Shown here: positions 5,188-61,381 of the stretch, piece by piece
How the letters are laid out: the number at the start of each line of letters is the position of its first letter
How positions within the stretch are numbered: the stretch's first letter is position 1
Source: an uncultured Acidobacteriota bacterium
Lineage (GTDB): Bacteria > Acidobacteriota > Blastocatellia > RBC074
Direction of reading: 5' to 3'
DNA length: 64,000 nt
Assembly: GCA_963743425.1 (NCBI GenBank)
Contig: CAVUPU010000001.1
Coordinates: 32,150 to 96,149 of the forward strand
Translations under genes and position numbers: made by a program
Notes under the pieces: model-generated
The model's database searches: none
What the model saw: only the letters and a program-made list of their open reading frames with translations
What the model was told of the DNA's origin: nothing

Positions 5188-5200
5188 TCAGCGTCCATAA

Positions 5201-5317
5201 CCGCCAAGACGCCAAGGACGCCAAGGACGCCAAGAAAAAGCGAGATGAAAGGGTGAAGGGCCAATTCCTTTATCTTTTATCTTTTATCTTTTCTTGGCGA
5301 TCTTGGCGTCTTGGCGG
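5201..5317. repeat. inverted tandem-repeat array: (CGCCAAGR)x4 ... (CTTTTAT)x3 ... (CTTGGCG)x3, between hsp20 and clpB
   Basis: Direct reading. Left arm CGCCAAGA CGCCAAGGA CGCCAAGGA CGCCAAG. Right arm CTTGGCGAT CTTGGCGT CTTGGCGG, the reverse complement of the left. The listed clpB ORF (5253) starts artifactually inside it. Confidence 0.8.
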
Positions 5318-5333
5318 TTTACACGAGGAAGAG

Positions 5334-7928
<2,595 letters not shown>

Positions 7929-7931
<3 letters not shown>

Positions 7932-8075
7932 GGATTGCGGATTGCGGATTGCGGATTTATTGATTCCGAGAATCCTGTTTTCACTGCGTCGCCTCTTGCG
8001 CGAGATAGACCAATGACTATCAATCCGCAATCCGCAATCCGCAATCCGCAATCCGCAATCCGCAATCCGCAATCC
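7929..8075. repeat. inverted heptamer arrays (GGATTGC)x3 ... (CAATCCG)x7, between clpB and grpE
   Basis: Direct reading. The left arm is at 7932-7957 and the right arm at about 8021-8075, separated by roughly 60 nt. The arms differ in copy number. Confidence 0.8.
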
Positions 8076-8119
8076 GCAATCCCACTCCCGTTCATTGCAA
8101 CATCCTTATTGCGATGATA

Positions 8120-8135
8120 GATTGACCTGACCATC
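8120..8135. promoter_or_regulatory. short perfect palindrome TGACCATCCGTGGTCA upstream of grpE
   Basis: 6-4-6 inverted repeat that overlaps the GTG start of the listed 8137 ORF. It may be an operator, or it may be incidental. Confidence 0.25.
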
Positions 8136-8913: not shown

Positions 8914-8933
8914 CAAAGTGGATGAATGATAGA

Positions 8934-8989
8934 TGAATGGGACTTATAGGACTTATAGGACCTCCTATAAGTCCTATAAGTCCCATTCA
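8934..8989. repeat. 56-bp perfect palindrome (TGAATGGGACTTATAGGACTTATAGGAC|CTCCTATAAGTCCTATAAGTCCCATTCA) upstream of groEL
   Basis: Direct reading. Each arm carries a tandem 10-mer GACTTATAGG x2. It is preceded by GATGAATG x2. It is not a CIRCE element. Confidence 0.85.
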
Positions 8990-8992
8990 TGA

Positions 8993-10624
<1,632 letters not shown>

Positions 10625-10820
10625 GGCGCCTTGACATGACGATGACGCTCCGATAGCTTAGACACTCTGAGATCAATTCTCTCGAAGTTTTCCGGCGCCG
10701 CGGAGAAAAATGGGCGCCGGAACTGGGGCGTGGAAGTCAGCCTGATCAATTTAAGATAAGAGCAGACGTCGGCCCATCAAGCCGTGATTTGAAGAAGTAT
10801 CTAAATTGGAGTGAAAGACC

Positions 10821-13082
<2,262 letters not shown>

Positions 13083-13252
13083 TTTTGGAAATAAACGTAT
13101 TGGTTTTGCAAGAGGGTTCCGACTGATGATTGTTGGAACCCTTTCCGTTTTCATGAACCTTATGGCGGTTAGCAAATGCGTTTAAGGGACGGCAAGCGGT
13201 ACAGTACCGAAGGTCGCGCCACTTTCTATCGGTCCCGGGTTTTAGATCACCT

Positions 13253-15832: not shown

Positions 15833-15902
15833 GTACAGTACCGCGCGTAAGCAAGCGGTTACCTGCGGGTCAGCCGCTTGCTTACACACGCGGTACTGTA
15901 CC
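15833..15902. repeat. GTAC-terminated perfect hairpin element (GTACAGTACCGCGCGTAAGC...GCTTACACACGCGGTACTGTACC) flanked by ~20-bp direct repeats
   Basis: Direct reading. The flanks CTTTCGTGTTGCGATGTACAG and CTTTCGTGTTGGGATGTGACA match at 19 of 21 positions. It belongs to a hairpin family seen at five other loci in the window. Confidence 0.8.
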
Positions 15903-15976
15903 AAGCTTTCGTGTTGGGATGTGACAAACGAACGCAGCCATCTTCGCATCGCGACAGGCTTCTAGCAAGAAAAGAT

Positions 15977-16090
15977 AGGTGTCAGGTGTCAGGTGTCAGG
16001 TGTCAGGTGTCAGGTGTCAGTAAAAGAATGACTACATGGATTCCTACTTGAAAACCTGAAACCTGAAACCTGAAACCTGAAACCTGACAC
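15977..16090. repeat. inverted heptamer arrays (GTGTCAG)x5 ... (CCTGAAA)x4-CCTGACAC abutting the ADOP stop codon
   Basis: Direct reading. On the ADOP coding strand, the stop TAG is followed directly by GTGTCAG (GTTTCAG)x4, about 35 nt of spacer, then (CTGACAC)x5. Confidence 0.85.
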
Positions 16091-18529
16091 CTATTCACAT
16101 CTGAGAGCGACCATCGGATCGACCTTCGCCGCGCGCCGGGCGGGAAGATAGCAGGCGATCAACACCACCAGCCCTAACAGCAGCGTCACGCTGGCGAACG
16201 TTACGATGTCGGTGGCGCTCACACCGTAGAGCACGCTCGACATCAGCCTCGTCAAAACCAGCGCGCCCGCCAGGCCTATCGCCAGCCCAGTGAGCGCCAG
16301 CCACATTCCCTGCTTCACGACAAGCCTCATAACGTCGCTCGACTCAGCGCCGAGCGCCATCCTTACGCCGATCTCGCGAGTCCGCTGGCTGGCGGCATAG
16401 GCCATCACGCCGTAAATGCCCAGCCCCGCGAGCAGAAGCGCCAGCAGCGCGAAACTGCCCGCCACCCACGCGCCCGCCTGCAGCGGGAGGAGCGAAAACC
16501 GCATGTGCTCGCTCATCGTCTTGACATCGTAAAGGGGCAGGTTCGCGTCGAGCCGCTCCACCTCGCGCCGAATCGTGTTGATTATGCTCTGCGGTTCGAC
16601 GCCGGTGTGGACGACGAGAGACATGTTTTCGTCGTACTCTCGCGCTATCGGGTAATAGACGAATGGCTGCGGGTCTTCGCCGAGAGTCCAGTACTTGCCG
16701 TCTTTCACGACGCCGACGACCTCGAAGCGCGGGTTGTCAGGTCCGCCTCGGCTCAGGCGCTTGCCGATTGGATTCTGCCCAGGCCAGAAGCGTCGCGCGA
16801 AAGTTTCGTTGACGATCACGACGCGCGACTCCTCTTTGTCCTCCTGCATCGTGAAATCGCGTCCTTCGAGCAATGGAATACCCATCGTCTCGAAATAACG
16901 CGGCCAGACAAGGCCGTATTGCACAGTGGGCAAATCGGAAGCGCGTGTGAACGGCTGGCCTTCGGCATAAATAATGCCGCCATTGAAATCAAGATTGAGT
17001 GGCAGAGAGTCAAGGTATGAGGCGGCGCGCACGCCTGGCAGCGATTCGACGCTCGTAATGAGTTGCTTGTAGAACTCGCGCCCGCGCGCCTCGTCATAGC
17101 CTTGCAGGCCCAGGTCAACCGACATCGTGATCCTGTTTTCGACCTCGAATCCCGGCCCGATCATTTGTACCTGTTGCAGACTGCGCACGATCAGCCCGGC
17201 GGCAATGAGCAAAAGAAGCGAAAGCGCCACCTGCGCGACGACCAATCCGTTGCGGAAACGCGAACGACGATAACCGCCAAGGCCGGCTTCATCCTTCAAT
17301 GCCGGGATCAGATCAACCTTGCTCGACTGCAGAGCCGGCGCCAGGCCGAAGAGCGCGCCGGTAATGAACGAAACGATCAGCGTGAAGGCCATCACGCGCC
17401 AATCGGGTCGCAGATCGATCAAGAGATTGAAATCTACCGGCGGCTTGAAGGCCGCGACCAGATCGATCATCCAGAGCGCGACCAACCAGCCCACGACTCC
17501 GCCGGCGAGCGATAGCGCCACGCTTTCAGTGAGCAACTGCCGTACGATTCTCAAACGCCCCGCGCCGAGCGACAAACGTATGGCGATTTCCCTGCGCCGC
17601 TGAGCCGCTCTCGCCAGCGACAAATTGGCCAGGTTCACGCAGGCGATCAGCAACACCAGCCCCACAGTCGCCATCAACACTCCCGCGAATCCCAATGTCC
17701 CATAACGGATTAACGGAACCGCCAGACCGGGCGGAGTGACGCTGAACGTCGTTTCACCGAGGCCCTGGTCCTCGCGCGCAAACTGCGCCAGCAACAGGGT
17801 GAGCGATTCACGCGCCTGTGTCGCGGTCACGCCCCGTTTCAGGCGACCAAACGCGAGGATCCCGCCGTTACCGCGATTTTCAAACCAACTCGATTCTCCC
17901 GGCGCGATTTGCTTCACCATCATCATTGGCGTGTAGAAATCCGGCTCGAAGATCAACACCGTTCCGCGAAACTCTTCGGGCGCGACGCCGATGATCGTGA
18001 AGTCGTGGCCATTGAGCTTGATCGTCTTGCCTACCAGGTTCGGATCGCCGCCGAAGCGACGCTGCCAACAGCCGTAGCTCACAACCGCGAGAGGATGCGC
18101 GCCCGGGACACGGTCTTCTTCCTGCGTGAACATTCGGCCTTTGAAGGCGCGCACGCCGAGCGTATCAAAATAATTACCCGAAGCCAGATAGCCAAAGACG
18201 CGCTCATTGACGCCGTTCTGACTCAGATTCATCGGCACAGGGATATATGCCGCCAGCCCGTCAAAGACTTCGTTCTTGTCGCGAAAATCTTTGTAGGTAG
18301 GATAAGAGTAAGCCCCGATGCTGGCGTCCTTCCTCAACGGAGTGACTTCGACGATCCGCTCCGGCTCCGCAATGGGCAGCGGCCGAAGCGCCACCGTGTT
18401 GACCAAACTGAAAATGGCTGTGTTCGCGCCGATTCCCAGGCCGAGCGTGATGATGGCGATTAATGTAAAGCCAGGCTTCCTCAACAACGTTCGCGCGCCG
18501 TAGCGCAGGTCTTGAAATAAAGTGTTCAT
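16091..18529 (-). CDS. ADOP-family ABC transporter permease (MacB-like, two FtsX modules with large periplasmic domains)
   Basis: N-terminal leader [22 protein letters not shown]. About 810 aa. Ends MVALRCE. The start was moved to ATG 18529, which has RBS GGAGGAAGG. Confidence 0.85.
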
Positions 18530-18545
18530 CGTCCTTCCTCCTTGT

Positions 18546-19908
18546 TTATTCGTTTTTCCCCAACGTGTAATCACCTTTGCGTTCACCGGGAATGAGCGTC
18601 CAGCCCGCGTTCAACTCCAGCGTCCAGCCATCGCCCTGAATCGGTTTGGGGGCCGGATCACGCGGAGCGGGGACCCGGATTTGAGAAAAGGCAGGGTTCA
18701 TCAACGCGCCCTCTGAAACAGTCAGTATTCCCCATACATCCACGATCCTGATGTTGGGATAAACCGTGCCGAGATCATCGAGCGGCTGGAGATTGTTCGG
18801 GTCGAACTGCATATTCATTTGGCGGAGCGGGACCACCAGAGCAGGCCCGTCAACCAAACGCGCGCGCCAGGCGGCGATGCGACGCCGGCGATCATTTTCA
18901 CGCTCAGTCTCCGAGGCGCGGAGCGCGTCTGAGGCGTAACGCCGGGCGGCTTCGGCTATTGCCTGTCCGATGTTCGGAGGCGGTTTCAGGGCCATCGCTC
19001 GTTGCAGCAGGAGTCCGAAATCGCTCTCCGGTCTCAATCCCTTTCTCCATTCCTTTCCGGCTTCATCAAGCAACAGCCCATAAGCAGGGCCGGACGCATA
19101 AGCGAACGAGCGCGTAAAAGATCGGCTGCGCTCCGCTTCCTTGAGCTGGCGCGCGGCGAATTGAACACCCGGCCTGCCGCTCAATCTGACGCCGGAGTAC
19201 TCAGCCAGGCCTTCGTGCATTTCCAACGCCCGCTCTTCCTGCTCGGCTTTTGGAAAGAGCGTCCTTCGATAGGCGCGAAAGATCAAGGCGTCGCTGACTG
19301 CCTGCCGGCGCTGCTTCCCTCGCCGCTTCAACCCCAACTCGAGCGCGCGCCATTCAAGTTGCAGCCAGACACGCCCCTCCATCGAATCCAGATGGCTATT
19401 GGACGGCATTGAGCCAGGTAAGCCGAGCTGATCCTGAATGCGATGCCACAATTCATGGATACATGAATCCTGCTCGATCGAATTGATCGGCGGGCAAAGG
19501 CCAGATCATCGTCGCCCACTTCACCCCCGCCCATTCAACGGCAGTATTGGCAATGTTCATCTGATTGGGGAGCTTCCCGACAAAGACCTCGCCGGAGCTT
19601 TTCAATCGCCCTTCACGGTCGCCTTGATTGGCCACCACCGCGCGCGTTTTCGCATCGACGAAAAGCATCGGCCCGCATAGCGAAACGCCCCAGAGCTTGC
19701 CGTTGTCCCGCCGGCATGATGCCTCCGCCTCACTGAAATATTGGCGCGCCATAGAAAGGTCAATTGGCGAATCTTGCGCCGCCACGTCGAAGATCGCCGC
19801 GCCGGCGCCCATGCCGAGCGCCAGCGTGGCGCCAGCAGTCCAAGTGAAAACACATCGCTTCAACAACGTTCGCGCGCCGTACCGCAGGCCTTGCCACAGT
19901 GTTTGCAT
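18546..19908 (-). CDS. chimeric or frameshifted gene: ADOP-type leader ([17 protein letters not shown] plus a TM segment) fused to an unrelated soluble domain; frame break at ~19452
   Basis: ORFs 19453-19908 and 18546-19451 are adjacent on the minus strand in different frames. Only the first ~45 residues resemble ADOP proteins. Confidence 0.45.
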
Positions 19909-19924: not shown

Positions 19925-20015
19925 GATGCCAGATGCTGGATGTCAGATGTCAGTGAGAGAGCATTGCCGCCACTCTTCTACCAACATCGAACATCTGACA
20001 TCTGATATCTGACAT
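19925..20015. repeat. inverted heptamer arrays (GATGYYR)x4 ... (ACATCTG / ATATCTG)x4 abutting the ADOP stop codon
   Basis: Direct reading. The coding-strand stop TAG is followed by ATGTCAG ATATCAG ATGTCAG ATGTTCG... The units resemble the terminal codons of the ADOP gene (...AGATGCGAATAG). Confidence 0.8.
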
Positions 20016-22514
20016 CTATTCGCATCTGAGCGCGATCATCGGATCCACCTTCGTCGCCCGTCGCGCCGGAACGAGCGCGGCGAGCAACGCTACTCCCACC
20101 AGCAACAACGCGACACCGGCAAAAGTCGCCGGATCGGTGGCGCTCACGCCGAAGAGCAGGCTCGCGAGCAGCCGCGTCAACAACAACGAGCCGATGACGC
20201 CGATCGTCGCGCCGGCGGCGATCAGCATTCCGCCCTGCCCCATCACCAGCCTCAGAACGTCTCCGGCCGTCGCGCCTAAAGCCATCCTGACGCCGATCTC
20301 CTTTGTCCGCTCTGCGACCGCGTAAGCCATCACGCCGTAGACGCCCATCACAGCGAGGGCGAGCGCGACGGCGGCGAAGACCGAGAAGATGACCAGGCTG
20401 AAGCGGCGTTGGTCGAGCGAGGAGGAGAAGATTTGTTGAATCGTGCGGAAACTGACAGGCAATTCCGGGTTGAGCGCGCGCGTCGTCCGGCTCATAGCGG
20501 CAGTGAGCGTCGCCGGGTCGGCCTGCGCCCGCACGACGATTGAGATCTGCGAAAGCGGTGGGCGCTGGAGCGCATTGCCATAGACCGTCGGCTGCGCGTC
20601 AGCATCCAGTCCGTCGGCGCGCACATCGCCGACGACGCCGACAATGTGCAACAGGCGCAGATCAGTGTCCATGTTCCCGAACTGAATGCGCTTGCCTATC
20701 GGGTCTTCATTCGGCCAGTACTTCCGGGCGAGCGACTGGCTGATGACCGCTACGTGTTGGCCTTCGAGCCTGTCGCCCTCGTCGAAGACGCGGCCCTTCA
20801 CAAGCGGGATACCCGCCGCGGCGAAGTAGCCCACGCTCGCAACGCGGTAATCGGCGTAGCCTATCTTCGCCGGGTTATTGTCAATCCAGAATGTTCCGTC
20901 GCCGCGATCGCCGTCCATTGGCACGCCGTTGACGCCGCCGATCGCGACGACGCCGGGCAGGTTTCTGAGACCGTCGAGCAACTGCCGATAAAACAGCGTC
21001 TGCCGCCACCGATACTCTACATATTCGTCCGGCTCGGGCAGGCTCTCCGGCATGCCGCCTCCCTCCATCATCCGCTCGAAGGCTCGCACGACTTGCTGTT
21101 CGTGCCGTCCGCGATCCGGGCCGGTGTAATCCGGCAATGACAGATCCATAACGATGGCGCTCTCGGCGCGGAAGCCGGGATCAACCTGAAGCAGCCGGTA
21201 AAAACTCTTGCCGAGCAGCCCCGCCCCCGTCAGCAGCGCGAGCGTCAAAGCCACCTGCGCCACGACGAGCGCGCTCCGCAGCCGGTTGCTCGTAGCTTGC
21301 CCCGCCTGGCCGCGCCCGCCGTCCTTCAGGTTGTCGTGCAGTTCGTTTTGCGAGAGTCGCGCGACCGGCGCGAGGCCGAGCGCGACCGCGATGAACAACG
21401 CGAGGCCGAGCGTAAAACCGAGCGCCCGCATGTCCACTCCGATCTCATCTGCGCGCGGCACACTGCCAGGATTCAATCCGATTAGCAGGTCCACGCCCCA
21501 GAGCGCAAATAGCGCGCCGAGCGCCCCGGCGATCAGAGCCAGCAGCGCATTCTCCGTCACGAACTGCGCCGCAAGTCTCCGCCTCGTCGCCCCGAGCGCA
21601 GCGCGCACGGCAAGCTCTTTCTGCCGCGCCGTCATTTGCGCGAGCAACAGGTTCGCCACGTTCGCGCAAGCCACCATCAACAGAAATCCGACGGCGGCGA
21701 GGACGATCAGCAACAGGTTCTTCGTGTCGCCGACTATGAACTCGTGGATCGGGATCGCGGCAATGTCCACGGCGTCTACGTCCTTGCCGTGTTCCTGCTT
21801 GATCTGCCTGGCGATGGCGCTCAGGTCGGAGCGGGCCTGCTCGATCGTTACGCCGCTCTTGAGCCGCGCAAACACGCTCCAGTTGTGCGCCGAGCGTGAG
21901 GTCTCTGGCGGAAGTAGCTCGCGCGGCGCCCACACATCGAATCCCTGTGGGAAACTGAAGCCCGGCGGCATCACGCCGACCACATCGAAGACCCGATCGC
22001 TGATCAGCAGTCTCACTCCGGCCAGATCAGCGCGCCCGCCGAGTCCCCTCTGCCAGAAGCCGTGGCTGACTACGGCTATCTGCTTGCCGCCGTCTTTAGC
22101 ATCTTCAGGCAGGAACGCTCGACCGGCGAGCGGCGCGACACCCAACACGCGGAAGAAATCATTCGTCGCGAAGAGTACTCGCGCACGCAACGGCTCGCTG
22201 CCGCCCGTTACCGTCTCCATCCCACCGGCGTACTCGGCGACGGCTTCGAGGCTGCGGTTGCGCTTGCGCACATCGCGGAAGTTCGGGTCGGTGAAGGCCA
22301 CCGGGCGGCCCTTCTCGTTCACCTCGCGCATCTGCACGACACGGTCAGCCCCAGGATAAGGCAGCGAACGTAGCAGCGCCGCGTCCACGATGCTGAAGAT
22401 GGCCGTGCAGGCGCCAATGCCCAGCGCCAATGTCAGTACGGCGATCGAGGTAAAGCCGGGCTTCTTCAGCAACATTCGCGCGCCGTAGCGCAGGTCTTGT
22501 AAGAGTGTTTGCAT
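20016..22514 (-). CDS. ADOP-family ABC transporter permease (MacB-like)
   Basis: [22 protein letters not shown] leader. 832 aa. Ends MIALRCE. Confidence 0.85.
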
Positions 22515-22813: not shown

Positions 22814-23139
22814 AACCAGGCAATCATAGCGCGAACTGTCGAGCTAAAGTTTCTACAGATGTCTTTGCGCCAGAGGCGCAGCGGATATTAGCCGGTGGTG
22901 GAGCGAAGCGTAACCACCGGAACCGGTGGAGTGATCTATTCCAGCCCCGGAGGGGCGACAGACCGAGCCTCAGTCTGTCGCCCCTCCGGGGCTGGGTTGA
23001 TGATCTCGATCGCATCCGGTGGTTTCTCCACCGGCTAATATCCGGCGTCCCTCCGGGACGAAGAGTAATCCCGGATTTGTATAGAAACTTTAGCTGCCGA
23101 GTTTGCGCCGCTTCCGCAACTGAGCGTGTAAATTTCGAT

Positions 23140-23432: not shown

Positions 23433-23531
23433 CATTTTCCATTTTCCATTTTAGATTTGTCATTTGTCATTGACTGAGAGGAACTGAGCGCAATGACAAA
23501 TGACAAATCTAAAATGGAAAATGGAAAATGG
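23433..23531. repeat. hairpin element built from heptamer repeats (CCATTTT)x3, (GTCATTT)x2, a 20-nt loop, then (AATGACA)x2, (AAATGGA)x3
   Basis: Direct reading. It has perfect 33-bp arms and lies between convergent genes. It shares motifs with the element at 54886-54996. Confidence 0.8.
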
Positions 23532-23558: not shown

Positions 23559-24590
23559 TCAATACTCACACAGCGGGCTGTGGACCTCGTACCGTTTGAC
23601 GTCCTTGAAGCCTTCGCCCTGATGGCAATCCGCGCAGATCGGCGCCCGTAAGACGCGGCGGTGTTTGAAGCTCGAATTGGCGTGGACCTGATGGCAGCTC
23701 AGACAGGTGATTGATTCATTGCCGTATAGCGCGACGTCACGCGCGTTGCGCCAGACGTGGCGGTCTCCCGCGTTCAGCTTCTGATCATCGGCCTTGGCCC
23801 AATCCACTTCCAAATCCTGAAACAGATTGTCGCCCGCCACGAAATTGTTTTGGTAGGGCAGACCCGTTGACCGCGATTTCGATTCGCGCAGGTGGCATTG
23901 CGCGCAGATCGAGGTAATCGCCCTGGCGTCATTGCGCCGCTTTTTCGACAACAGGACCAGCGATGTGTCATTGGTGTGATTGAGGTCAACGGGGCCGTGG
24001 CAGGTGTAGCAATCCAGCCCGAACGCGCTGAAGGCTCTGGTCTCGGGATCAACCGCTGTCGTGTGACAGCCCGCGCACCGGTTGGCGAACTTTTCTTTGT
24101 CCCACGCGAGCTTCTCGTGATCAATCAACGTAGCAGGTTGGCCGTTCGCGCCGAGCGCGGCCTGCGCATTGAGCATAGTGAATTTGCCGTAGCCCTCTTT
24201 CTTCAGAAAGCGCACGCGGCGCCGGCTGCCGATGAAGTATTCGATTTGCTTCGCGGCGTCTGCAAGAGCCGGCAAGGATTCAAGCATTTTGGTCAATTCC
24301 GGCGCATCTTCGCGCTGCCGCACCGTAACGCCGTGCGCGTTCTTCTGCCACGAGGGGCCGATGTCGTTACGATGGCAGAAGAGGCATTCGTCGCCGTGCA
24401 CGAATTCCGGGATCGGTTTGCCGACGTGATTGCCGCCCCATGCTTTCGGATCAACCGGCTTCTGCTCCGGCTTGTTCTGATCCTGTCCGCTCGCGGCGCC
24501 GTTGAAGCATAGAGCGAAAAGCGCGAACGCGCAAACAACCAGCGACTTTGCGATGGCGGTTGGCCGCGTGATTTTGCTTCTCGAACGCAT
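23559..24590 (-). CDS. hexaheme c-type cytochrome (six CxxCH motifs), secreted
   Basis: CLFCH, CAGCH, CYTCH, CAQCH, CLSCH and CADCH. Signal peptide follows the internal Met (MRSRSKITRPTAIAKSLVVCAFALFA). Start set at 24590. Confidence 0.8.
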   Translation of the reverse strand: MRSRSKITRPTAIAKSLVVCAFALFALCFNGAASGQDQNKPEQKPVDPKAWGGNHVGKPIPEFVHGDECLFCHRNDIGPSWQKNAHGVTVRQREDAPELTKMLESLPALADAAKQIEYFIGSRRRVRFLKKEGYGKFTMLNAQAALGANGQPATLIDHEKLAWDKEKFANRCAGCHTTAVDPETRAFSAFGLDCYTCHGPVDLNHTNDTSLVLLSKKRRNDARAITSICAQCHLRESKSRSTGLPYQNNFVAGDNLFQDLEVDWAKADDQKLNAGDRHVWRNARDVALYGNESITCLSCHQVHANSSFKHRRVLRAPICADCHQGEGFKDVKRYEVHSPLCEY

Positions 24591-24607
24591 GAGGCTATTG
24601 AAGATCG

Positions 24608-24700
24608 CCCCTGGGTACGCATCGCTTCCAGCGTGCGAGGCTCCGATCAAAGACCGAGTAATGGAAGCCTCGCACGCTGGAAGCGATGCGTACCCAGGGG
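24608..24700. repeat. GTAC-type perfect hairpin (34-bp arms CCCCTGGGTACGCATCGCTTCCAGCGTGCGAGGC, 25-nt loop)
   Basis: Direct reading. It sits between two co-directional genes. Confidence 0.8.
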
Positions 24701-27309: not shown

Positions 27310-28733
27310 TATCCTCTCTTCAGGTCTTCATTGAGCGAGTTCAAGAACGCGACAAGCGGAGCGATCTCCGCCGCGCCGATCCTGATCTTCGCCAACTCCT
27401 CATCGCCTTCGCGGACGCGACCCGCGCGGGCCATATCGCTTAAACGAATTATCTCTCCCAAAGTTTCTTCCAGCGTTTGAATAGAGCCGTTGTGAAAATA
27501 GGGATGCGTGTAAGCCAGATTGCGCAGCGTTGGCGTTTTGAACGTGGCGATCATCCTTCGCAGGAAAATGTCATCACTCTCTCCGGCGCGGCGCAGCGGC
27601 GATGTTTTCAGATCAACGAAATTCCAGAAGCCCAGGTCAGTCTCGCCCGGCTTCTCCTTCGACGGATTTTCGCGGAACTGCGCCGACGGGCGGCGCGCCG
27701 ACGCGGCGTCAGGAATCGCCAGCGCCGCGAATTTGCCTTCGCCACCATCACTATGGACGCGATCGTAATCAACCTGGCTGACACCCTTGTTGTGAAATGA
27801 AAAATCGGTGAAGAGCGGCGGCGTATGGCAGGTCGCGCAATTGCCAGCTTTCGTGTCGAAGAATATCTTCAGCCCTTTGAGCGCCGCCGCGTTGAAATCC
27901 CTCGTGAGCTTGATCGCGCCTTTCGACTCGATCGAATCGATCCCGGCCAGCAGCCGTCGCGCGAAGGCGTTGCCGTCTTCGCCCGGCGCGGGTTTGCTCT
28001 CCAACCGGTTGGCTTCGATGAATTTGTCGTAGGGAGAATCTTTGCGCGTGTTGAGCGTGCGGATGAAGCCGGCCAGGGCTTTGGCTATCAGTTCGACTAC
28101 TTCGTCGCGGCCGAGTTTTTCAACGTCAACGTTGAACGCCGCTTTGAACTGATTTCGATACGACTCCGCGCCGTCGTCATTCGATATGACGGCGCGCGCG
28201 CGTTCGAAGGCCTGGGCCTCTTCGCCCGGCAGCCATCCCATCGGACGCCCCGAGATGGTGCCTCTGACCAGTTCTTCCAGCGAGCCGAATTCGCCGTCGT
28301 GATGCAGCCGGGGCATTTCAGCCACGTCGAAGATCGTCGGCGAATTTCGCAACCCGAGCCGGCGGCGGTCCTGCGCGCGCGACGAGACCCAGCTTCGGTT
28401 GAAGAAATCGGCGTAGGCGCGCAAGCCCTGCGGGTCCTGGTTGAACAGATGGCAATTGCTGCAACTCGCGGGCAGGTCTCCCTCGGGAGTCGAGAACCGG
28501 TCGTCGTTGAACAAACGCTCGCCTAGATGGATTACGGCTGATCTTTCCTGTTTCTGTTGAGATTGGCCGAGCGCGGGTCGAGTGAGATCGCCTGTTAAGC
28601 GTGAAAGCGCCAGACAAAAAAATGTCAGACAGAAAAACAGGAAGCGGGGAATGGGGAATGGGGAATGGGGAATGGGGGGCTTTTCCTCTGTTCCCACTCC
28701 CCACTCCCCACTCCCCGTCTTTCTGTCTGACAT
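27306..28733 (-). CDS. di-heme cytochrome c peroxidase (CCP/MauG family)
   Basis: Two CxxCH motifs (CSNCH, CATCH) with CCP-like spacing. It overlaps the PQQ-DH start by 4 bp. Its N-terminal region is encoded through the repeat array at 28609-28749, so the start is uncertain (28733 or 28754). Confidence 0.8.
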
Positions 28734-28749
28734 TTTTCTGTCTCCTCTT
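28609..28749. repeat. composite palindrome: outer 18-bp arms AAAAATGTCAGACAGAAA/TTTCTGTCTGACATTTTT enclosing (GGGGAAT)x4 ... (CCCCACT)x3
   Basis: Direct reading. It overlaps the 5' end of the CCP ORF. Confidence 0.8.
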
Positions 28750-28779: not shown

Positions 28780-29754
28780 TCACTCCTTGATCGGATGGCC
28801 TTCGATCAATTCGATGCGAATTTTATCCGGCCCTTCGATGAATGCGAATTTGATCTTGCCGCCGGCGACCGAACGAATCTCATCTGTCACTTTGACGCCG
28901 TCTTTGCGCAGCTTCTCCAAAGCTTCAGGCAGATTCGCGACGCTGAATCCGACGTGGTCAACGACGCGGCCCTTGGTCGATTCAAGCTCGGTCTTGCCTT
29001 TCCAATGCTCAGGATAAGCCTTCTTCGGGTACTCGACCGGATAGATGATGATGTTGACGTTGTCCATCGCGAGCGACATCGAAGGGCCGATCTGGTAGCT
29101 GCGATAAAAACGGGGTTCGCGCGACGGCGCGCGAGTCCCGCGACGTTTGGCGCCGAAATACTTCTCATACCATTCGCCGGCCGCCACCGGGTCGGCGCTG
29201 AACATGTGCAGGTGGCCGAAGTGATGATGCCCCGCCGTGTTGATCTCGATCAGAGCTTTGTCCGGGCTTTCGATGTAGGCGTAAAAGAACCGCCCTGTGG
29301 CGCCGGTATTGCCGCCGATGTCGCTGATGTCCGTCAACGGCGTGAAGAACTTCGTGCCCGCGGCCACATGCTTTTCATAAGTCGCCTTCATATCCTCCGC
29401 GCCCCAGCCGAAATGCCATATCGCCGAAGTCAATTCCCAGGGCGGGGCCTTTTCGACTTTGGTGAACAGCAACCAGGATTTCTGCGCCCAGACCGCGTCG
29501 AGCATTCCAGCGAACTTCGCCTTCTCGCAATCGAATTTCGAGGTGTAGAAATCAATCGCGCCTTTCGGGTCGAGGGTATTCAGGTGCAGGTGATGGAAAT
29601 GGGCTTCGGGAAACTGCGCCTCGGCGGGTTTGTTTTCCGCAGTCGGCGGCTTCGTCTCCTGCGCGTTGAAGCCGGATACGCACAACGCCAACGCCGCTAA
29701 AAAGAGAAGAAAGCTGACTGGTACAGGCCATAGCCAATTTTTTTTCCTAAGCAT
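28780..29754 (-). CDS. VOC-family protein (glyoxalase/bleomycin-resistance/extradiol dioxygenase fold, two modules), secreted
   Basis: Signal peptide. Paired beta-alpha-beta-beta-beta modules with His/Glu metal ligands (HFHHLHL..., HVGFSV). Confidence 0.7.
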
Positions 29755-29771
29755 GGAGATTTCTCCGTAAT

Positions 29772-29854
29772 GTAGGGGCAGACCTGCGTGTCTGCCCCGG
29801 TTTCAGGAAGGCGCGCCTCATCACACCGGGACAGACACACAGGTCTGCCCCTAC
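29772..29854. repeat. hairpin element GTAGGGGCAGACCTGCGTGTCTGCCCCGG ... CCGGGACAGACACACAGGTCTGCCCCTAC; each arm is itself a hairpin
   Basis: Direct reading. There are two mismatches between the arms. Confidence 0.75.
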
Positions 29855-29944
29855 GTTGTCGCAATTAACGCGGCCAAAAATGGGCGCCCCAACGCGCCGG
29901 ATTGCGCATCAGACCGCCCATTCATCGCTTGCCGCGGGAGCGGT

Positions 29945-31492
<1,548 letters not shown>

Positions 31493-31516
31493 ATGATGAC
31501 TCCTTGGGGAAAGGTT

Positions 31517-31577
31517 CGTAGTACCGCCTTCAGGCGGAAGCGGAATCCTTCCGCTTCCGCCTGAAGGCGGTACTACG
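31517..31577. repeat. GTAC-type perfect hairpin CGTAGTACCGCCTTCAGGCGGAAGCGGAATCC|TTCCGCTTCCGCCTGAAGGCGGTACTACG
   Basis: Direct reading. Confidence 0.8.
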
Positions 31578-31587
31578 AACGCAATAT

Positions 31588-34131: not shown

Positions 34132-36585
34132 ATGCAAACACTGTTGCAAGACCTGCGCTACGGCGCGCGAATGTTGCTTAAGAAACCCGGTTTTACGTTA
34201 ATTGCCGTCATCACGCTTGCGCTGGGCATCGGAGCGAACACGGCGATCTTTACTGTAGTCAATGGTGTGCTGCTGCGCCCGCTGCCTTACGACGAGCCGG
34301 ATCGGTTGGTGATGCTCTGGGAGAGCGATCCGCGCCGGAATATCGAGCGGCAGCGGGTTGCGCCGCCGAACCTGGTTGAGTGGCGGGAGCAGAGTCGCTC
34401 TTTTGAAGACATCGCGTACTGGACGGGCAATGGCGAGTTCAATCTGGTAACGGCCGATGGCATCGAAAAGGCAATGTGCGCTTACGTCACGTCGAGTCTC
34501 TTCTCGACCTTGCGCGTCAGGCCGCATCTGGGCCGCGCGTTCCTGCCGGAAGAGGATCAGCTCGAAGGCAATCGCGTCGCGCTTCTCAGTTACGAATACT
34601 GGCAGCGGCGCTTTGCCGCGGACCCGCAGGTGATTGGCAGGACGCTGACAATGGATACGTTTGGCCGGCGCGATTACACCGTCGTCGGCGTAATGCAGCC
34701 TGGGTTCCGCTTCCCCAATCAGACGGAAATCTGGTTGCCGGTGGGATGGGACGGCATTCCCAGAGCGCGCCGCGGCAATTGGCTATCAGTGATCGCGCGG
34801 CTCAAGGACGGCGCGTCATTAACGCAAGCCCAGGCCGAAATGAACCTGATCCAGTCGCGCATCGAACAGCGACACCGCGAGGCCAGTCCGAGCGTCGTCA
34901 TTATCCCGCTGCTCGAACAGACGCTGGGCGCGAGGTTGAGTTCGGCGTTGCTGATTTTGTGGGGCGTCGTCGCGTGCGTTTTGTTGATTGCGTGCGCGAA
35001 TGTCGCCAACCTGCTGCTGGCACGCGCCGCCGACCGGCACAAAGAGATCGCCATCCGGCTGGCGTTGGGCGGAAGCCGATGGCGGATGGTCCGGCAGTTG
35101 CTGACTGAATGCATGTCGCTGGCGTTCCTGGGCGGCGCCTTCGGCGCGCTGCTGGCCGGTTGGAGTCTCAAGCTGTTGATCGCCTTCAACGCCGACCACA
35201 TCCCGCGACTAGGTGAGACACGATTGGATGGTCGGTCGCTGGCTTTCACGACGTTGGCCACCTGCCTGACCGGCTTGCTCTTCGGCCTCGCGTCCGCCTG
35301 GCAAACGACGAAGCCTGATTTGAACGTCGCGCTGAAAGACAGCGGCGGAGGCGCGACCGGTGGTTTGCGGCGCAACCGGTTGCGCGCACTTTTGATCGTC
35401 GCCGAGGTCGCGCTGTCAATGTTGTTGTTGATCGGGGCGGGCTTGATGATCCGTAGCTTCGCGCAGATGACGCGCGTTGATCGCGGCTTTCGACCGGATC
35501 ACCTGTTGACCGCGAAACTCGATTTCTCAGTCTCTGGCTTCACCACCTGGGTCAGGCCGACCGAGACGCGACCGCAGGTAACGATACGCGAATTGATAGA
35601 GCGCCTGAAGAATCAGCCCGGCGCGCAAGCGGTCGGCGCCACGAGCGACAAGGCGGGCTTCCAGATCACAGTCGAAAACCGCCAGACCGGCGTGGAAGAA
35701 GATTATCCGCGCACAAGTTTTCAGGGCGTTACATCGGACTACTTCCGCGCGATGGGCGTTCCGATGCTGCAAGGCCGCACATTCAACGAGGCCGACTCCT
35801 TGGAAGCGCCGCGCGTCGCCATCCTCAGCGAAGCGCTGGCGAAGCGATGTTTCCCCAACGAGAATCCCATCGGCAAACGGATTTATCTCGGCCGCTTGAA
35901 CCCCGGCCAGGTTGGCGAGCTTGATCGATGGACGAACGTGACGTTGTGGGCAGAGATTGTCGGCGTCGTGGCGGATGTGAAGAGCATGAGCCTCGACCCG
36001 CAGGTCGAATCTAATGTCTACGTTCCTTACTTGCAGTGGCCGATGCAAACGCCGACGCTCTTCGTGCGGACGGCGGGGAACCCGGCCAACTTCGCGGCGG
36101 CGCTCTACAGCGAAGTCAAAGCCTTGAACAAAAACCTGCCCACGCCGAAAGTTCAGACGATGAACGAGCGGCTCTCCGACGTAGTTGCGGAGCCACGCTT
36201 TCAAACCTTGTTGCTTGGCTTGTTCGGTCTCGTGGCGCTGGTCCTTGTCAGCGCTGGCATCTACGGCGTCGTCTCGTATTCGGTCGCGCAGCGCACACAA
36301 GAGATCGGCATACGCATGGCGCTTGGCGCAGGCGCGCGCGATGTCTTGCGGCTCGTGATCGGGCAGGGTATGAAGCTTGTGTTGATCGGCCTCGCCATCG
36401 GCTTGGCTGGAGCATTGGCGCTGACTCGTTTGATGAAGACTTTGTTGTTCGGCGTGAGCGCCAGCGATCCGCTGACGTTCGGCTCGATTACGCTGCTGCT
36501 TGCGCTCGTCGCGCTGCTGGCGTGCTGGATTCCGGCTCGCCGCGCTATCAGGGTCAATCCAATAGTGGCGTTGCGGCGCGAATGA
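34132..36585 (+). CDS. ADOP-family ABC transporter permease (MacB-like)
   Basis: [22 protein letters not shown] leader. 817 aa. Ends IVALRRE. Confidence 0.85.
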
Positions 36586-37052: not shown

Positions 37053-37220
37053 CGTTTATTGTCAGAGCATCACTATACAGTCGCATTATGTTCGCGCTGG
37101 CTCGAAAGTTGGGATTCGCTATCCTGACCAACGCCGCTGACTCTGGATTCACGTTATGCAATGCGACGGCCACGATTGTGCTCAGTCATTTTCTGCTCCA
37201 ACCCTAGAGGAGATTGGCTA

Positions 37221-38505
37221 ATGGAAACTTTATGGCAAGACATTCGCTTCGGATTCAGGATATTGTTCAAGAGTCCCGCTTTTACCCTTGTCGCGGCGCT
37301 CTCTCTGGCGCTCGGCATCGGCGCGAACACGGCGGTCTTCAGCATCATCAACGCATCATTGTTGAAACCGTTGCCGGTCGAAGAGCCTGAGCGGCTGGTG
37401 TCGTTCTTCACGACGGACGCCAAGAATCCGGGCAACCTTCCGACCCGAAGGTTTCACCGGAACCGATCTTGGGCCTGGCCCCGACCTGTGGGTTCCGATG
37501 ATGATGCACGATCAGTCGCAGCCGGGGTTCGACTGGTACAACGGGCGACGCGGCCTCTTTCTCAATCTGATCGGCCGCCTCAAACCGGGCGTAAGCGTCG
37601 AGCAAGCGCAGGCTTCACTCAAAAATTTCGCCGGCCAGTTGGCGCAATCCTATCCCAAAGACAACGAGGGGCGCAGCGCGAAAGTCATTCCGCTGCTCCA
37701 GGCCGGAATTGACCCTGATGGCTCGGGCCAACTGCTGCTCGCTTCGGGAGTGATGATGGCGGTCGTCGCTCTGGTCTTGTTGATCGCCTGCGCCAATATC
37801 GCCAATCTGCTGCTGGCGCGCGCTTCCGCCCGTCGCAAGGAGATCGCAATGCGGCTCGCGCTGGGAGCCGGACGCGCGCGGTTGATCAGACAGCTCCTGA
37901 CCGAAAGCCTCGTCCTTTCATTGGTGGGCGGCGTGGTCGGATTTCTGGTAGCGTTCTGGGCGAAAGACCTGTTGCGCTTCTTCGATCCGGTTGGCGGCGA
38001 GCCGAACGCTCCGCCGGTCGCAACGTTGAATTTCCGCGTGCTCGGCTTCACCTTGCTGGTCTCGCTCCTGAGCGGAATCATCTTCGGACTGGCGCCCGCG
38101 CTGCAAGCCTCCAAACCGGATCTGGTGTTAACGCTGAAAGGCGAAACGTCCGCGCCGGCTCGCCGTGCTTTCGGCTTCAATCTCCGCAAGGCTCTGGTGG
38201 TGATTCAGGTCGCGCTCTCGCTGGTCGCGCTGATCAGCGCGGGACTGTTTGTGCGGAGCCTGCGCAACGCGCAAGCCGTCAATCCCGGCTTCATCACCGA
38301 CAACATCCTGCTCGCCGGCTTCAATCTGGGTCGCGAGGGAATGGCCAAACCGCAGGGCGTCAACTTCCAGCGACAATTGGTGGAGCGCGTCGCCGCGCTG
38401 CCAGGCGCGCAATCTGTGATGATCGCGAGCAGTCGCCCCTTCGGCGGCGGGTTTCTCCGCAGCGTCTTTCTCGAAGGGCAGGCGCCCAGTGAGCGAGGCG
38501 TGTTG
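37221..38505 (+). pseudogene. truncated and frameshifted ADOP permease remnant (leader, shortened periplasmic domain, first FtsX module), ending at a heptamer array
   Basis: [22 protein letters not shown] leader. Frame break at ~37440. The second FtsX half is absent. The reading frame runs into (GACATCY)x3 at 38510-38533 and then into the 3' end of the convergent gdh. Confidence 0.6.
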
Positions 38506-38539
38506 GTGCATGACATCCGACATCTGACATCTGCCCTTA

Positions 38540-54885: not shown

Positions 54886-54996
54886 TTTTCTCTTTTCCAT
54901 TTTCCGCTTGTCATTATTCCATTTGTCATTGTGTATCGGCGCAACCCGGCAATGGCGCCTGAAAAATGGCAAGTGGAAAATGGAAAATGAACAAGG
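54886..54996. repeat. imperfect palindrome of heptamer repeats (TTTCCAT / TTGTCATT ... AATGGCA / GGAAAAT) upstream of the kinase gene
   Basis: Direct reading. It is related in motif content to the element at 23433-23531. Confidence 0.7.
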
Positions 54997-58030: not shown

Positions 58031-58205
58031 ATCATCGTTTCGGCCACTGGCGAGATTGGAACAGCAGGAACCGCGGATTTTCACGGATGCCACGGATTGT
58101 CACGGATAATCCGCATTGATCCGTCGCATCCGTGAAAATCCGCGGTTGCTCATCGTCCTGATGTGGCCGGCTCTGATTTGGATAAGTGGCCGAAACGATG
58201 ATCAA
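58031..58205. repeat. nested inverted-repeat element: outer 19-bp IR TGATCATCGTTTCGGCCAC / GTGGCCGAAACGATGATCA enclosing a hairpin with 20-bp perfect arms and internal CACGGAT repeats
   Basis: Direct reading. It is MITE-like. It lies immediately upstream of the BNR gene and overlaps that gene's listed 5' extension. Confidence 0.75.
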
Positions 58206-61374: not shown

Positions 61375-61381
61375 AGGCCTT

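Follow-up and report, generated by a model that had tools for sequence, protein, structure and literature searches.

Inverted heptamer arrays and their hairpins at gene 3' ends in a Blastocatellia lineage

Two full-length genes of the ADOP family of duplicated permeases, ADOP1 and ADOP2, lie in the window (the whole 64-kb stretch of DNA analysed here), and each is followed by tandem heptamers, which raises the question of how such arrays arise and whether they belong to the permease genes at all. The coding strand of ADOP1 ends in ...CTC AGA TGT GAA TAG GTGTCAG (GTTTCAG)x5, and that of ADOP2, which shares just 36% identity with ADOP1 and for which an exact-protein look-up returned no record, ends in ...CTC AGA TGC GAA TAG ATGTCAG ATATCAG ATGTCAG ATGTTCG ATGTTGG. 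The original prediction that the arrays directly follow the TAG of both genes is borne out by these sequences. The units belong to one family, (G/A)T(G/T)TCAG, whose first, degenerate member takes in the stop codon itself (TAGGTGT against CAGGTGT in ADOP1), and the predicted stem of the ADOP1 RNA fold begins at AUAG. The array may start exactly at the stop codon because coding constraint ends there. The interval 15977-16090 consists of two inverted arrays, (CTGACAC)x6.3 and (GTTTCAG)x5.9 on the gene strand, flanking the 31-nt loop, and the distal arm carries one mismatch to the proximal arm in every unit. The ADOP2 hairpin has its inverted arrays at 19925-19953 and 19981-20015, and its distal arm ends ~16 nt before the GGAGGAATT-ATG of the next ORF, an ADOP N-terminal fragment. 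In both cases the inverted partner lies ~30 nt from the array and the hairpin extends from the stop codon in the direction of the following gene. Hairpin formation, which had been proposed, is supported by RNA folding, with minimum free energies (MFE) of -67 and -43.9 kcal/mol and z-scores of -10.2 and -4.5 for ADOP1 and ADOP2, respectively; no shuffle folds equally well.

We searched the window for arrays by TRF and exact-run scans, with 100 Markov simulations as the null. At period 7, exact arrays with 2.4 copies or more numbered 13, against a simulated mean of 0.35 and maximum of 2, and at period 9 there were three against 0.01 expected, while the counts at periods 5, 6, 8, 10, and 11 equalled expectation. 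Twelve of the 13 exact arrays are members of inverted pairs, and the RNA folds of the array hairpins reach z-scores of -4.5 to -15.7, unmatched by any shuffle. Seven gene 3' ends bear such hairpins, and the supposed link to ADOP genes fails on five of them, since the same architecture, built from other 7- to 9-nt units, follows the genes for Hsp20, ClpB, GrpE, a cytochrome c, and a glyoxalase (Table 1). The stop codon TAG of ClpB (7929-7931) lies inside the array, which also encodes the last residues of the protein. In the cytochrome c hairpin, nested (CATTTTC)x3 (ATTTGTC)x2.4 and their complements produce 40-nt perfect arms, and in the glyoxalase hairpin (GGGGAAT)x4.6 and (CCCACTC)x3.4 are set within a non-repetitive outer stem. 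Units of the CGGAT type, similar to those of the hairpin at 58066, occur 3' of an ADOP gene in the relative L002. At least five unrelated clusters of units are present in the window, with G-tracts only in GGGGAAT/GGGAATG, and an Rfam scan of the window found no family at any array, its sole match being a group II intron domain at 61300-61376.

Table 1. Positions of the genes, hairpins and arrays discussed in the text.
Feature	Positions	Strand	Sequence, fold or context
Hsp20-to-ClpB hairpin	5199..5319	+	8/9-mer arms (CGCCAAGGA)n, (TCTTGGCG)n; inner stem (TTTATCT)x3.4; MFE -68.4, z -10.3
ClpB-to-GrpE hairpin	7905..8092	+	(GGGAATG)x3 (GGATTGC)x3.7, loop, (CAATCCG)x8.9 CAATCCCACTCCC; MFE -92.2, z -7.5
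GrpE-to-GroEL hairpin	8933..8990	+	perfect 28-bp stem, 9-mers GGACTTATA and TCCTATAAG; z -12
Pyrimidine-rich tail, immediately beyond ADOP1 hairpin	15966..15976	-	CUAUCUUUUCUUG
ADOP1 hairpin distal arm	15977..16020	-	gene strand: (CTGACAC)x6.3
ADOP1 hairpin loop	16021..16051	-	31 nt
ADOP1 hairpin proximal arm	16052..16093	-	gene strand: TAG GTGTCAG (GTTTCAG)x5
ADOP1 stop codon	16091-16093	-	TAG
ADOP1, full-length ADOP-family duplicated permease gene	16091..18586	-	NCBIfam TIGR03434, E=4e-296, profile positions 1-803
ADOP2 hairpin distal arm	19925..19953	-	CTGACAT CTGACAT CCAGCAT CTGGCAT
ADOP2 hairpin loop	19954..19980	-	
ADOP2 hairpin proximal arm	19981..20018	-	TAG ATGTCAG ATATCAG ATGTCAG ATGTTCG ATGTTGG
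ADOP2 stop codon	20016-20018	-	TAG
ADOP2, full-length ADOP permease gene	20016..22514	-	TIGR03434, E=8e-267
Hairpin 3' of cytochrome c gene	23433..23531	-	gene at 23559-24650; z -15.7
Hairpin 3' of glyoxalase gene	28612..28743	-	gene at 28780-29754; MFE -96.9, z -12.8
Truncated ADOP remnant	37197-38510		
Solitary array, distal-arm orientation	38511..38533	+	(GACATCY)x3; at homology end of truncated ADOP remnant
CATTTTC/CATTTGT composite hairpin, second copy	54900..54990	+	between ECF sigma factor and Ser/Thr kinase genes
Hairpin with ~10-nt repeat arms	58066..58150	+	(CACGGATNNN)

Arrays in the window start 0-60 nt past stop codons, none stands in a divergent promoter region, and all lie at 3' ends or between cistrons. 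Such hypermutable arrays, one of which holds the stop codon and tail of ClpB, could be phase-variation (contingency) repeats that switch expression; however, they are found at 3' ends and not at promoters or in 5' coding regions, and they follow housekeeping and chaperone genes, and we consider this role extremely unlikely. The density of arrays is 24 per 100 kb in 12 sequences of the close Blastocatellia clade against 1.3 in 91 other Acidobacteriota loci, and the clade sequences hold 43 period-7 arrays against 0-2 at every other period. Other Blastocatellia are array-poor, and in contig CAWDRU010000002.1, for example, the 22 kb scanned yielded no array. Array hairpins mark out a single Blastocatellia lineage, and in this soil acidobacterium they follow many unrelated genes. 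The original prediction had named the lack of arrays at most ADOP paralogues as a refutation, and this is what is seen family-wide (193 of 210 ADOP 3' ends have none), but within the close clade most have one.

According to the original prediction, slippage at the terminal codons of a gene seeded the array next to it, and the unit of the array echoes those codons. We compared units and gene ends in a narrow test (the last 24 coding nt) and a broad test (30 nt, both flanks, both orientations). The echo is exact only in ADOP2, where the unit rotation TCAGATG occurs in ...CTCAGATGC... (p ~0.007 narrow, 0.03 broad); the ADOP1 unit matches at 6/7, the unit downstream of the Hsp20 gene, GACGCCAAG, is similar to the tail codons GACGCGAAG of that gene, and the GrpE and cytochrome c genes show no echo. 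The narrow test over six loci gave p ~0.02 (Fisher combination by hand), but the broad test over seven hairpins gave p = 0.18-0.23, and the echo is overall not significant. Seeding is possible in principle: in L112 (GATTGCG)x3 stands in phase with the conserved GATTGCGATGATAG (GATTGCG), and in L111 and L114 inserts lie between duplicates of the GroEL terminal codons. However, the coding TCAGATG of ADOP2 is out of phase with its array by 3 nt, and the unit does not follow changes of the terminal codons in relatives. The unit family stays constant despite differing terminal codons in L031_4358, L029_3518, L003_12446, and L003_7329, the ADOP ends ...CTCCGATTCGAA, ...CTCAAATTCGAA, and ...CTGCGATGCGAT all being followed by the same family, while the similar ends ...CTCAGATGTGAA (L001_7093) and ...CTCCGGTGTGAA (L002_4504) are followed by unrelated CACGAAG units after TAA. 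Seeding from the gene's own codons is thus improbable, to a marked degree.

Slippage-type expansion, the other part of that claim, fares better. Across the 16 ADOP hairpins of the clade, the number of copies and the variants of the unit differ throughout (orthologous hairpins have, for instance, 3.3 and 7.6, 3.3 and 8.3, or 6.3 and 5.9 copies), and such change between relatives fits replication slippage. Recombination at the arrays, which had also been suggested, is supported by several junctions. Loops homologous to that of ADOP1 occur in L001 and L002, and L030 has it inverted; the ADOP2 loop lies in the opposite orientation in the orthologous L007 hairpin, where a 14-nt exact match (TGCCGCCACTCTTC) is present and the alignment score is 35-41 with one loop inverted and 9-10 without inversion. 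Loops are thereby flipped between orthologues in two cases (the window and L007; L002 and L030), and an inter-arm segment found in both orientations fits recombination between the arms. The same loop stands at two different paralogue ends in L003 (L003_7329 and L003_12446, score 49), and the ADOP2 orthologue of L030 bears an ADOP1-type hairpin; whole hairpins are common to the junctions of deeply diverged ADOP paralogues, which share only 36-41% identity. Array sequences also coincide with deletion end points. The third array was confirmed at the place where the truncated ADOP remnant stops: homology of the remnant to the L012 gene ends at 38510 (blastn) and that to ADOP1 ~30 nt earlier (tblastn), and the junction of remnant and array shows the microhomology ACATC(G/C)GAC. 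From this arrangement of the sequence, a deletion probably fused the middle of the gene with what had been the distal arm of a 3' hairpin.

On balance we think it probable that the array hairpins are hypervariable stem-loops at 3' ends or between cistrons, driven by slippage and recombination and built of inverted arrays of 7-nt, sometimes 8-10-nt, units. The hairpins stand directly 3' of the stop codon and several end near the ribosome-binding site of the next gene, and the transcript would fold there into a very stable 3'-end or intercistronic structure. Any RNA-level role is putative; the structure may serve as a partial terminator, an attenuator, or an exonuclease barrier, and its tandem-repeat make-up would be a mutational by-product and not a selected code.

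Like Rho-independent terminators, the array hairpins follow directly after the stop codon, are stable, have a pyrimidine-rich tail in some cases, and occupy the same position at orthologous sites. At the 3' end of the ClpA-like gene, the window, L109, and L111 have a canonical terminator (GGGTTCC...GGAACCC and a T-tract), while L003, L025, and L115 have array hairpins; at the Hsp20 3' end, L111 and L115 have a canonical terminator and the window, L109, L113, and L114 array hairpins. An array hairpin can stand at an orthologous site where other genomes have a canonical terminator or nothing, and the terminator sites are indirect evidence that transcripts may end at the hairpins. The pyrimidine-rich tail of the ADOP1 hairpin is kept in L025, L031, and L047, and a U-rich tract follows the ADOP1, ADOP2, and glyoxalase hairpins but none follows those of ClpB, GrpE, and cytochrome c. 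Unlike Rho-independent terminators, however, the array hairpins have stems of 30-50 nt with periodic mismatches and loops of up to ~80 nt, several lack a U-tract, and some abut the next ribosome-binding site. The typical form of a short GC-rich stem with a 3-8 nt loop and a U-tract was not found among them, their loops being mostly 18-80 nt. A terminator consensus scan of the window found canonical sites at 13111-13144 and 22813-22776, and the inner Hsp20|ClpB stem at 5248-5278 was its sole match among the array hairpins. In tandem ADOP operons, moreover, the hairpin ends 15-18 nt upstream of the next ATG, where a strong terminator would silence the downstream gene.

Alternatively, the hairpins could be functionless, a neutral by-product of a lineage-specific bias towards slippage and template switching, tolerated because a self-folding insert leaves the effective spacing of the flanking signals unchanged. 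Rapid turnover with unrelated units at orthologous sites agrees with this, as do the sister lineages entirely without arrays and the presence or absence that differs between close relatives; the hairpin is absent between ClpB and GrpE in L003 (z ~0) and at the GroEL 3' end in the window (z -1.5), so hairpins are dispensable at such sites. In about half of the ADOP hairpins a non-wobble mismatch (U-C or G-A) recurs systematically in each unit, which implies that perfect pairing is not strongly selected, and no function has been found for the analogous repeats of Xanthomonas and Nostoc (PMC4692102). In contrast, neutrality does not account readily for array hairpins at the canonical-terminator sites of other genomes, for the tight placement between stop codon and ribosome-binding site at 16 ADOP junctions, or for the 9-mer family of the GrpE|GroEL hairpin, which recurs in L109, L111, L112, and L114 and is thereby kept in five genomes. 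Taken together, we see a lack of function as possible, though not the probable case.

The hairpins could also be small mobile or copy-and-paste elements of several families, similar to REPs or MITEs, that insert at gene 3' ends. The composite (CATTTTC)n(CATTTGT)n hairpin occurs at both 23433 and 54900 with unrelated flanks, and in-situ slippage alone does not explain identical composite hairpins at unrelated loci. GGGGAAT/CCCACTC units occupy two sites in the window and a third in L113, and GGATTGC and GAGGATC units lie at different sites in different genomes. At the GroEL 3' end the window has GGCGCC once, and the inserts of L003 and L115 have it at either edge; GGCGCC is its own reverse complement and hence cannot separate target duplication from stem extension. 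Like REP/BIME and REPIN sequences, for which mRNA stabilisation or transcription termination has been proposed, the hairpins are palindromes scattered over intergenic sequence, often in 3' UTRs or between cistrons, and strain-variable; unlike the hairpins, REPs have a conserved sequence, a RAYT transposase, and non-tandem stems (PMC3333891, PMC3116915). Some unit families recur at unrelated sites and the stems vary, 64 kb being too short a stretch for a judgement of copy number; no RAYT (Y1 transposase) gene was noticed among the ORFs scanned, and no transposase was tied to the hairpins. By inspection, no direct repeats flank the window hairpins, nor is there a consistent target duplication or terminal motif, and at the ADOP junctions copying is explicable by flanking gene homology alone. 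Mobility of this kind is unlikely in our view. A bolder proposal, which we rate no higher, is that an active process in this Blastocatellia lineage builds, copies, and replaces gene-end hairpins from tandem 7-9-mers and spreads them between unrelated loci. It might work by template-switch or fold-back synthesis or through an unrecognised hairpin-mobilising enzyme, and the elements would supply stop or last codons, flip via inter-arm recombination, and displace canonical terminators. If so, they would form a class of self-renewing, mobile, terminator-like elements and not passive microsatellites.

Two other uses of the hairpin sequences, as promoter and as PadR operator, were considered and set aside. 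Promoter-like matches were flagged within the ADOP1 distal arm (CTGACA-N16-TATCTT) and within the 23433 hairpin (ATGACA-N18-GAAAAT); their number did not exceed that in shuffles (9 against 5.1 +/- 2.6), and the tandem ADOP junctions leave no room for a promoter. The operator pattern of PadR is ATGT-N8-ACAT; this spacing never occurs in the arrays, and the ORFs scanned revealed no PadR gene. A strand test based on G-U versus A-C mismatches was uninformative, its signs being in conflict: the glyoxalase hairpin points to the sense strand and the ClpB outer stem to the antisense strand, with U-C/G-A mismatches in ADOP. An apparent trend for the G-rich arm to be the gene-proximal one likewise carries no information, since both strands of a hairpin read alike.

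Among known systems, the closest case is that of the inverted GGGAATC heptamer pairs of Xanthomonas. Of these repeats, 89-93% are intergenic, at a mean of 28 nt from the upstream ORF; in each genome 70-75 of them form inverted pairs that converge, and species differ in how long the repeats are (Rehm et al. 2015, PMC4692102). Like GGGAATC and the GGGGA(C/T)T repeats of Nostoc, the arrays described here consist of tandem 7-nt units, are strongly intergenic and near the end of the upstream ORF, often form two convergent arrays able to make a stem-loop, and vary in length and sequence among close relatives (PMC4692102); the window also has GGGAATG and GGGGAAT units. The present arrays differ from those repeats in that a single genome contains many unit families, G-quadruplexes are beyond the reach of most units, one family goes with paralogous genes and incorporates their stop codon, periods of 8-10 nt are also present, and the phylum is Acidobacteriota. 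The window arrays share the general features of heptameric simple sequence repeats (7-nt tandem units, period-7 excess, intergenic position near the upstream ORF end, inverted pairs, and variation), but no single G-rich, G-quadruplex-capable consensus unit was found in the window, a feature that defines the Xanthomonas sub-type and not the general class. The regulatory role proposed for the Xanthomonas and Nostoc repeats, through G-quadruplexes or another DNA structure, would suit (GGGGAAT)x4.6 at 28646-28677, a canonical four-tract motif, and GGGAATG at 7910, which is close to GGGAATC; most units, such as GGTGTCA, GATGTCA, CATTTTC, GGACTTATA, and CGCCAAGGA, however, have no G-tracts, and this role is very unlikely for the arrays described here. 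An excess of heptanucleotide repeats in prokaryotes, with 7 as the favoured period of long simple repeats and slippage as the proposed cause, was reported by Mrazek (2007), and the STRR of Calothrix comprise three different tandemly repeated heptanucleotides (both via PMC4679880, PMC4692102). Systematic hairpin pairing, loop inversion, and exchange between paralogue junctions set the present arrays apart from those reports as they are summarised there. The TAACTGA repeats of marine Beggiatoaceae and cyanobacteria are likewise abundant intergenic heptamer arrays of patchy phylogenetic distribution with no known spreading mechanism, but they are direct repeats just upstream of start codons, with 1/170 inverted (MacGregor 2015, PMC4679880), whereas the arrays here are inverted pairs at or near stop codons.

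Heptamer repeats are the commonest long simple repeats in bacteria, and their origin and role are unexplained. With its many unit families, its graded relatives, and its orthologous sites at which hairpins were clearly gained, lost, replaced, or inverted, the Blastocatellia lineage allows the birth and turnover of hairpins to be traced and their relation to terminators to be tested. For annotation, the arrays are a warning that repeats can shape the 3' ends of genes, their stop codons, and short C-terminal tails, as in the ClpB tail and a 157-residue Hsp20 variant, and that tandem ADOP clusters recombine at hairpin junctions.

The window holds 13 exact arrays of period 7 (at least 2.4 copies), compared with 0-4 for each of the other periods from 2 to 15 and a simulated expectation of 0.35 (maximum 2) in first-order Markov simulations. 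Inverted pairs take in 12 of the 13, and the genes adjoining the arrays are mostly not ADOP. When the 140 nt after every gene were folded, array hairpins were found at seven 3' ends, and other 3' ends carry either long unique palindromes or short canonical terminators. The fold predictions for the non-ADOP array hairpins gave z from -7.5 to -15.7. In sequence and predicted fold, each element is a pair of inverted arrays with 7-10-nt units, making a very stable hairpin, and the class is specific to one lineage.

Array hairpins, associated genes and other elements in the window
Feature	Position	Strand	Remarks
ADOP1, full-length ADOP-family duplicated permease ORF	16091-18586	minus	TIGR03434, E=4e-296
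ADOP2 permease ORF	20016-22514	minus	E=8e-267
Third intact ADOP gene (ADOP3)	34132-36585		Without array
Third array, (GACATCY)x3	38511-38533		After ADOP remnant spanning profile positions 199-521 only
9-mer and heptamer hairpin			Between Hsp20 and ClpB
(GGGAATG)(GGATTGC) / (CAATCCG) hairpin			Between ClpB and GrpE; ClpB TAG stop inside array
Perfect 28-bp hairpin of 9-mers			Between GrpE and GroEL
Nested (CATTTTC)(ATTTGTC) hairpin			3' of cytochrome c gene
(GGGGAAT) / (CCCACTC) hairpin			3' of glyoxalase gene
Second CATTTTC/CATTTGT hairpin			Between ECF sigma factor gene and kinase gene
(GGGGAAT)x4.6 then GGGGGG	28646-28677		Textbook G-quadruplex motif
ClpB C-terminus	7896-7931		Exceeds the L003 protein (...MVFVEG*) by five residues; extra codons and TAG supplied by (GGGAATG)n array
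TTGCAACATCC-N3-ATTGCGATGATAGATTGAC	8094-8130		Upstream of grpE
GGCGCC-TTGACATGA	10625-10645		Past groEL stop
Degenerate ADOP gene-end copy, GTCGCGATGCGAAGATGG	15938-15955	minus	Cf. GTCGC...GATGYGAATAG; ~25 nt beyond ADOP1 hairpin
ADOP N-terminus starting the ORF after the ADOP2 hairpin	19762-19908	minus	54-67% identical to paralogue residues 1-56
Rest of that ORF	18546-19760	minus	~1.2 kb without Pfam match
Second intergenic palindrome family	15836-15905, 53852-53941, 46133-46211; fragment 13187-13200		No tandem repeats; outer ends GGTACAGTAC...GTACTGTACC, arms of at most 45 nt, one copy without loop
Very long unique palindromes directly 3' of genes	24608-24700, 29769-29857, 31514-31580, 22941-22995		152-nt folds with MFE -78 to -95 kcal/mol
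Group II catalytic intron domain	61300-61376	minus	Rfam RF00029, 49.5 bits, E=1e-6; shortly after the end of ORF 61650-62711, same strand
54-nt tandem repeat	50913-51055		2.6 copies, 91% matches; in-frame coding repeat in ORF 49637-51337

As originally noted, the TAG stops of ADOP1 and ADOP2 run straight into heptamers, and the third array adjoins the truncated ADOP gene. The coding strand of ADOP1 ends ...GCT CTC AGA TGT GAA TAG and continues directly into GTGTCAG (GTTTCAG)x5; after a 31-nt loop comes a near-complementary second array, (CTGACAC)x6.3, and then the pyrimidine-rich CTATCTTTTCTTG. This 132-nt stretch is predicted to fold into a single RNA hairpin of -67 kcal/mol (shuffle mean -30.5, z -10.2), with AUAG of the stop codon in the predicted stem base. 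In ADOP2, the gene end and proximal arm read ...CTC AGA TGC GAA TAG ATGTCAG ATATCAG ATGTCAG ATGTTCG ATGTTGG, the distal arm beyond the loop reads CTGACAT CTGACAT CCAGCAT CTGGCAT, and the predicted fold reaches -43.9 kcal/mol (z -4.5). The pairwise identity of ADOP1, ADOP2 and ADOP3 is only 36-41%, yet the hairpins are one family. In the relative's locus L003 an ADOP1 orthologue lies directly behind the hairpin; the window site, where only an ADOP N-terminus follows ADOP2, has therefore had its ADOP gene either disrupted or replaced. The degenerate gene-end copy beyond the ADOP1 hairpin is conserved in L025, L031 and L047, and could be what is left of an ADOP gene once present downstream, or of a gene end that was duplicated.

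The closest ADOP1 relatives, at 81-91% identity, are in Blastocatellia (Acidobacteriota) metagenome-assembled genomes. The 12 sequences of the close clade contain 43 period-7 arrays in 178 kb (24 per 100 kb), compared with 1.3 per 100 kb in 91 loci of other Acidobacteriota, and both groups are almost devoid of arrays with other periods. Among the 210 ADOP 3' ends having enough downstream sequence, only 17 possess an exact array no more than 40 nt away from the stop codon. Fifteen of these come from the close clade (window, L001-L003, L007, L025, L029-L032 and L047), all with TAG followed by (G/A)T(G/T)TCAG units, and the other two are L004 (TGA, GATTTCA units) and L056 (TAA, GAATTGC units). 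The arrays, taken at first for an ADOP-family feature, are thus a trait of the lineage.

The unit had also been thought to echo the terminal codons of its gene. For the two ADOP genes this holds in part: the ADOP2 unit, rotated to TCAGATG, has an exact match within its last codons, which is out of phase with the array by 3 nt, and the ADOP1 unit matches its own codons at 6 of 7 positions. A narrow test, confined to the final 24 coding nt of each locus, gave p of 0.007 for ADOP2, 0.085 for glyoxalase, 0.09 for ClpB, 0.17 for Hsp20 and 0.83-0.84 for GrpE and cytochrome c (~0.02 when combined by hand with Fisher's method), and a broad test using 30 nt of each flank in both orientations gave 0.18-0.23. 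As a rule the echo fails, since the unit family is unchanged although ADOP genes end CTCCGATTCGAA, CTCAAATTCGAA, CTGCGATGCGAT or CTCAAGTGTGAA. In the ADOP genes ending CTCAGATGTGAA (L001) and CTCCGGTGTGAA (L002), the stop is TAA and the repeats behind it are of an unrelated CACGAAG type. The Hsp20 tail is conserved in most homologues among the 120 listed and is therefore not array-derived. In L112, (GATTGCG)x3 directly adjoins the conserved GATTGCGATGATAGATTGAC upstream of grpE and keeps its phase; local seeding of an array from neighbouring sequence could conceivably occur.

Every orthologue differs in copy number and unit variants, e.g., the ADOP1 hairpin arms hold 5.9 + 6.3 copies in the window, 4.4 + 7.6 in L001 and 6.3 + 9.6 in L025. 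Slippage-type expansion agrees with this variation; its general seeding by terminal codons does not survive. In L007 the ADOP2 hairpin has its loop flipped (alignment score 35-41 inverted versus 9-10 direct, including an exact match of 14 nt) and the degenerate inner units travel with it. L030 carries the ADOP1-type loop in the orientation opposite to that of L002, the window and L001. Flips of this kind are the outcome expected from recombination between inverted arms. Two different paralogue ends of L003 have one loop in common (score 49), and the ADOP2 orthologue of L030 bears an ADOP1-type loop and units; shared loops across paralogues this divergent imply that hairpins are exchanged between paralogue junctions. 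Compared with the intact gene of L012, homology of the ADOP remnant stops at 38510, adjoining the array, with the microhomology ACATC(G/C)GAC, and L112 lacks the whole interval from the proximal GATTGCG array to the conserved GATTGCG; at the sequence level, arrays fall at deletion end points. The flipped loops, the shared loops and the remnant break favor the proposal that arrays serve as recombination sites among ADOP paralogues. Across these comparisons, the elements change through copy number, loop inversion and exchange between junctions. Alternatively, the hairpins may originate by copy-and-paste, as suggested by identical composite hairpins at 23433 and 54900 with unrelated flanks, or their origin may be purely neutral. 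About half of the ADOP hairpins retain one non-wobble mismatch per unit, and some others are perfectly mirror-symmetric (e.g., L047_4195).

L003 and the window share gene order over window positions 6024-28426, with nucleotide identity of 82-92%, and the Hsp20-ClpB-GrpE-GroEL-ClpA-like cluster was compared in L109-L116; relatives are unlike one another at each intergenic site. The ClpA-like 3' end has a canonical terminator (GGGTTCC...GGAACCC then a T-tract) in the window, L109 and L111, 8-mer hairpins in L003 and L025, and a 9-mer hairpin in L115. The Hsp20 3' end has a canonical terminator in L111 and L115 and array hairpins of four different units in the window, L109, L113 and L114, the last beginning at TAG with the loss of the last four codons. 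At the GrpE/GroEL site, a 9-mer family (ATAGGACNN) of 2-4 copies is kept in the window, L109, L111, L112 and L114, and L003 and L115 have other sequences. The GroEL 3' end is empty in the window (TGA GGCGCC TTGACATG), and four different hairpins occupy it in L003, L109, L114 and L115. Strong folds are missing at ClpB/GrpE in L003 (z about 0) and at the GroEL 3' end in the window (z -1.5); such sites, together with the differing hairpins, show the hairpins to be dispensable and replaceable. Array hairpins share their position with the terminators of other genomes. In L111 (16003-16050) and L114 (10270-10400), an insert is flanked by two copies of the final 9-18 nt of groEL, stop codon included, so that hairpin gain at a gene end can duplicate terminal codons. 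The four GroEL hairpins sit just before a conserved GGCGCC element, GGCGCC lies on both sides of two of them, and the TTGACA there resembles a -35 promoter box of the ClpA-like gene. Most relatives examined retain the element upstream of grpE amid sequence that turns over; the heptamer GATTGCG within this element is the array unit of the adjoining hairpin, and the element is probably a promoter or operator.

At the RNA level, the hairpins would serve as 3'-end or intercistronic structures. In the tandem ADOP operons, the stop codon lies in the stem base and the next ribosome-binding site follows closely on the hairpin (GGAGGAATT-ATG begins ~16 nt beyond the ADOP2 hairpin), so an intercistronic stabiliser or attenuator fits better than a full terminator. 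That arrays begin right at the stop may reflect the end of coding constraint at this point; where a gene can do without its tail, as would hold for ClpB and the Hsp20 variant, the array extends into the coding sequence.

An excess of heptamer repeats in prokaryotic intergenic DNA was reported in 2007, with polymerase slippage as the proposed cause, according to later accounts (PMC4679880, PMC4692102). The closest match to the window arrays is the Xanthomonas GGGAATC repeats (Rehm et al. 2015, PMC4692102), with 183-186 sites per genome, 89-93% of them intergenic and lying on average 28 nt past the upstream ORF and 160 nt ahead of the following one, 70 to 75 of them forming convergent inverted pairs, lengths varying between species and no function found. 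The architecture is the same, here in a new phylum, and our literature search found no description of such repeats in Acidobacteria. Unlike Xanthomonas, the window lineage has many unit families, mostly non-G4, one of which is linked to a gene family and takes in the stop codon; the added value over known heptamer repeats lies in the evolutionary detail. The GGGGAAT unit of the G-quadruplex motif is near-identical to the Nostoc GGGGATT and Xanthomonas GGGAATC repeats. The second palindrome family looks like REP- or MITE-like dispersed hairpins, and the window genome seems to favor unusually long 3' hairpins in general.
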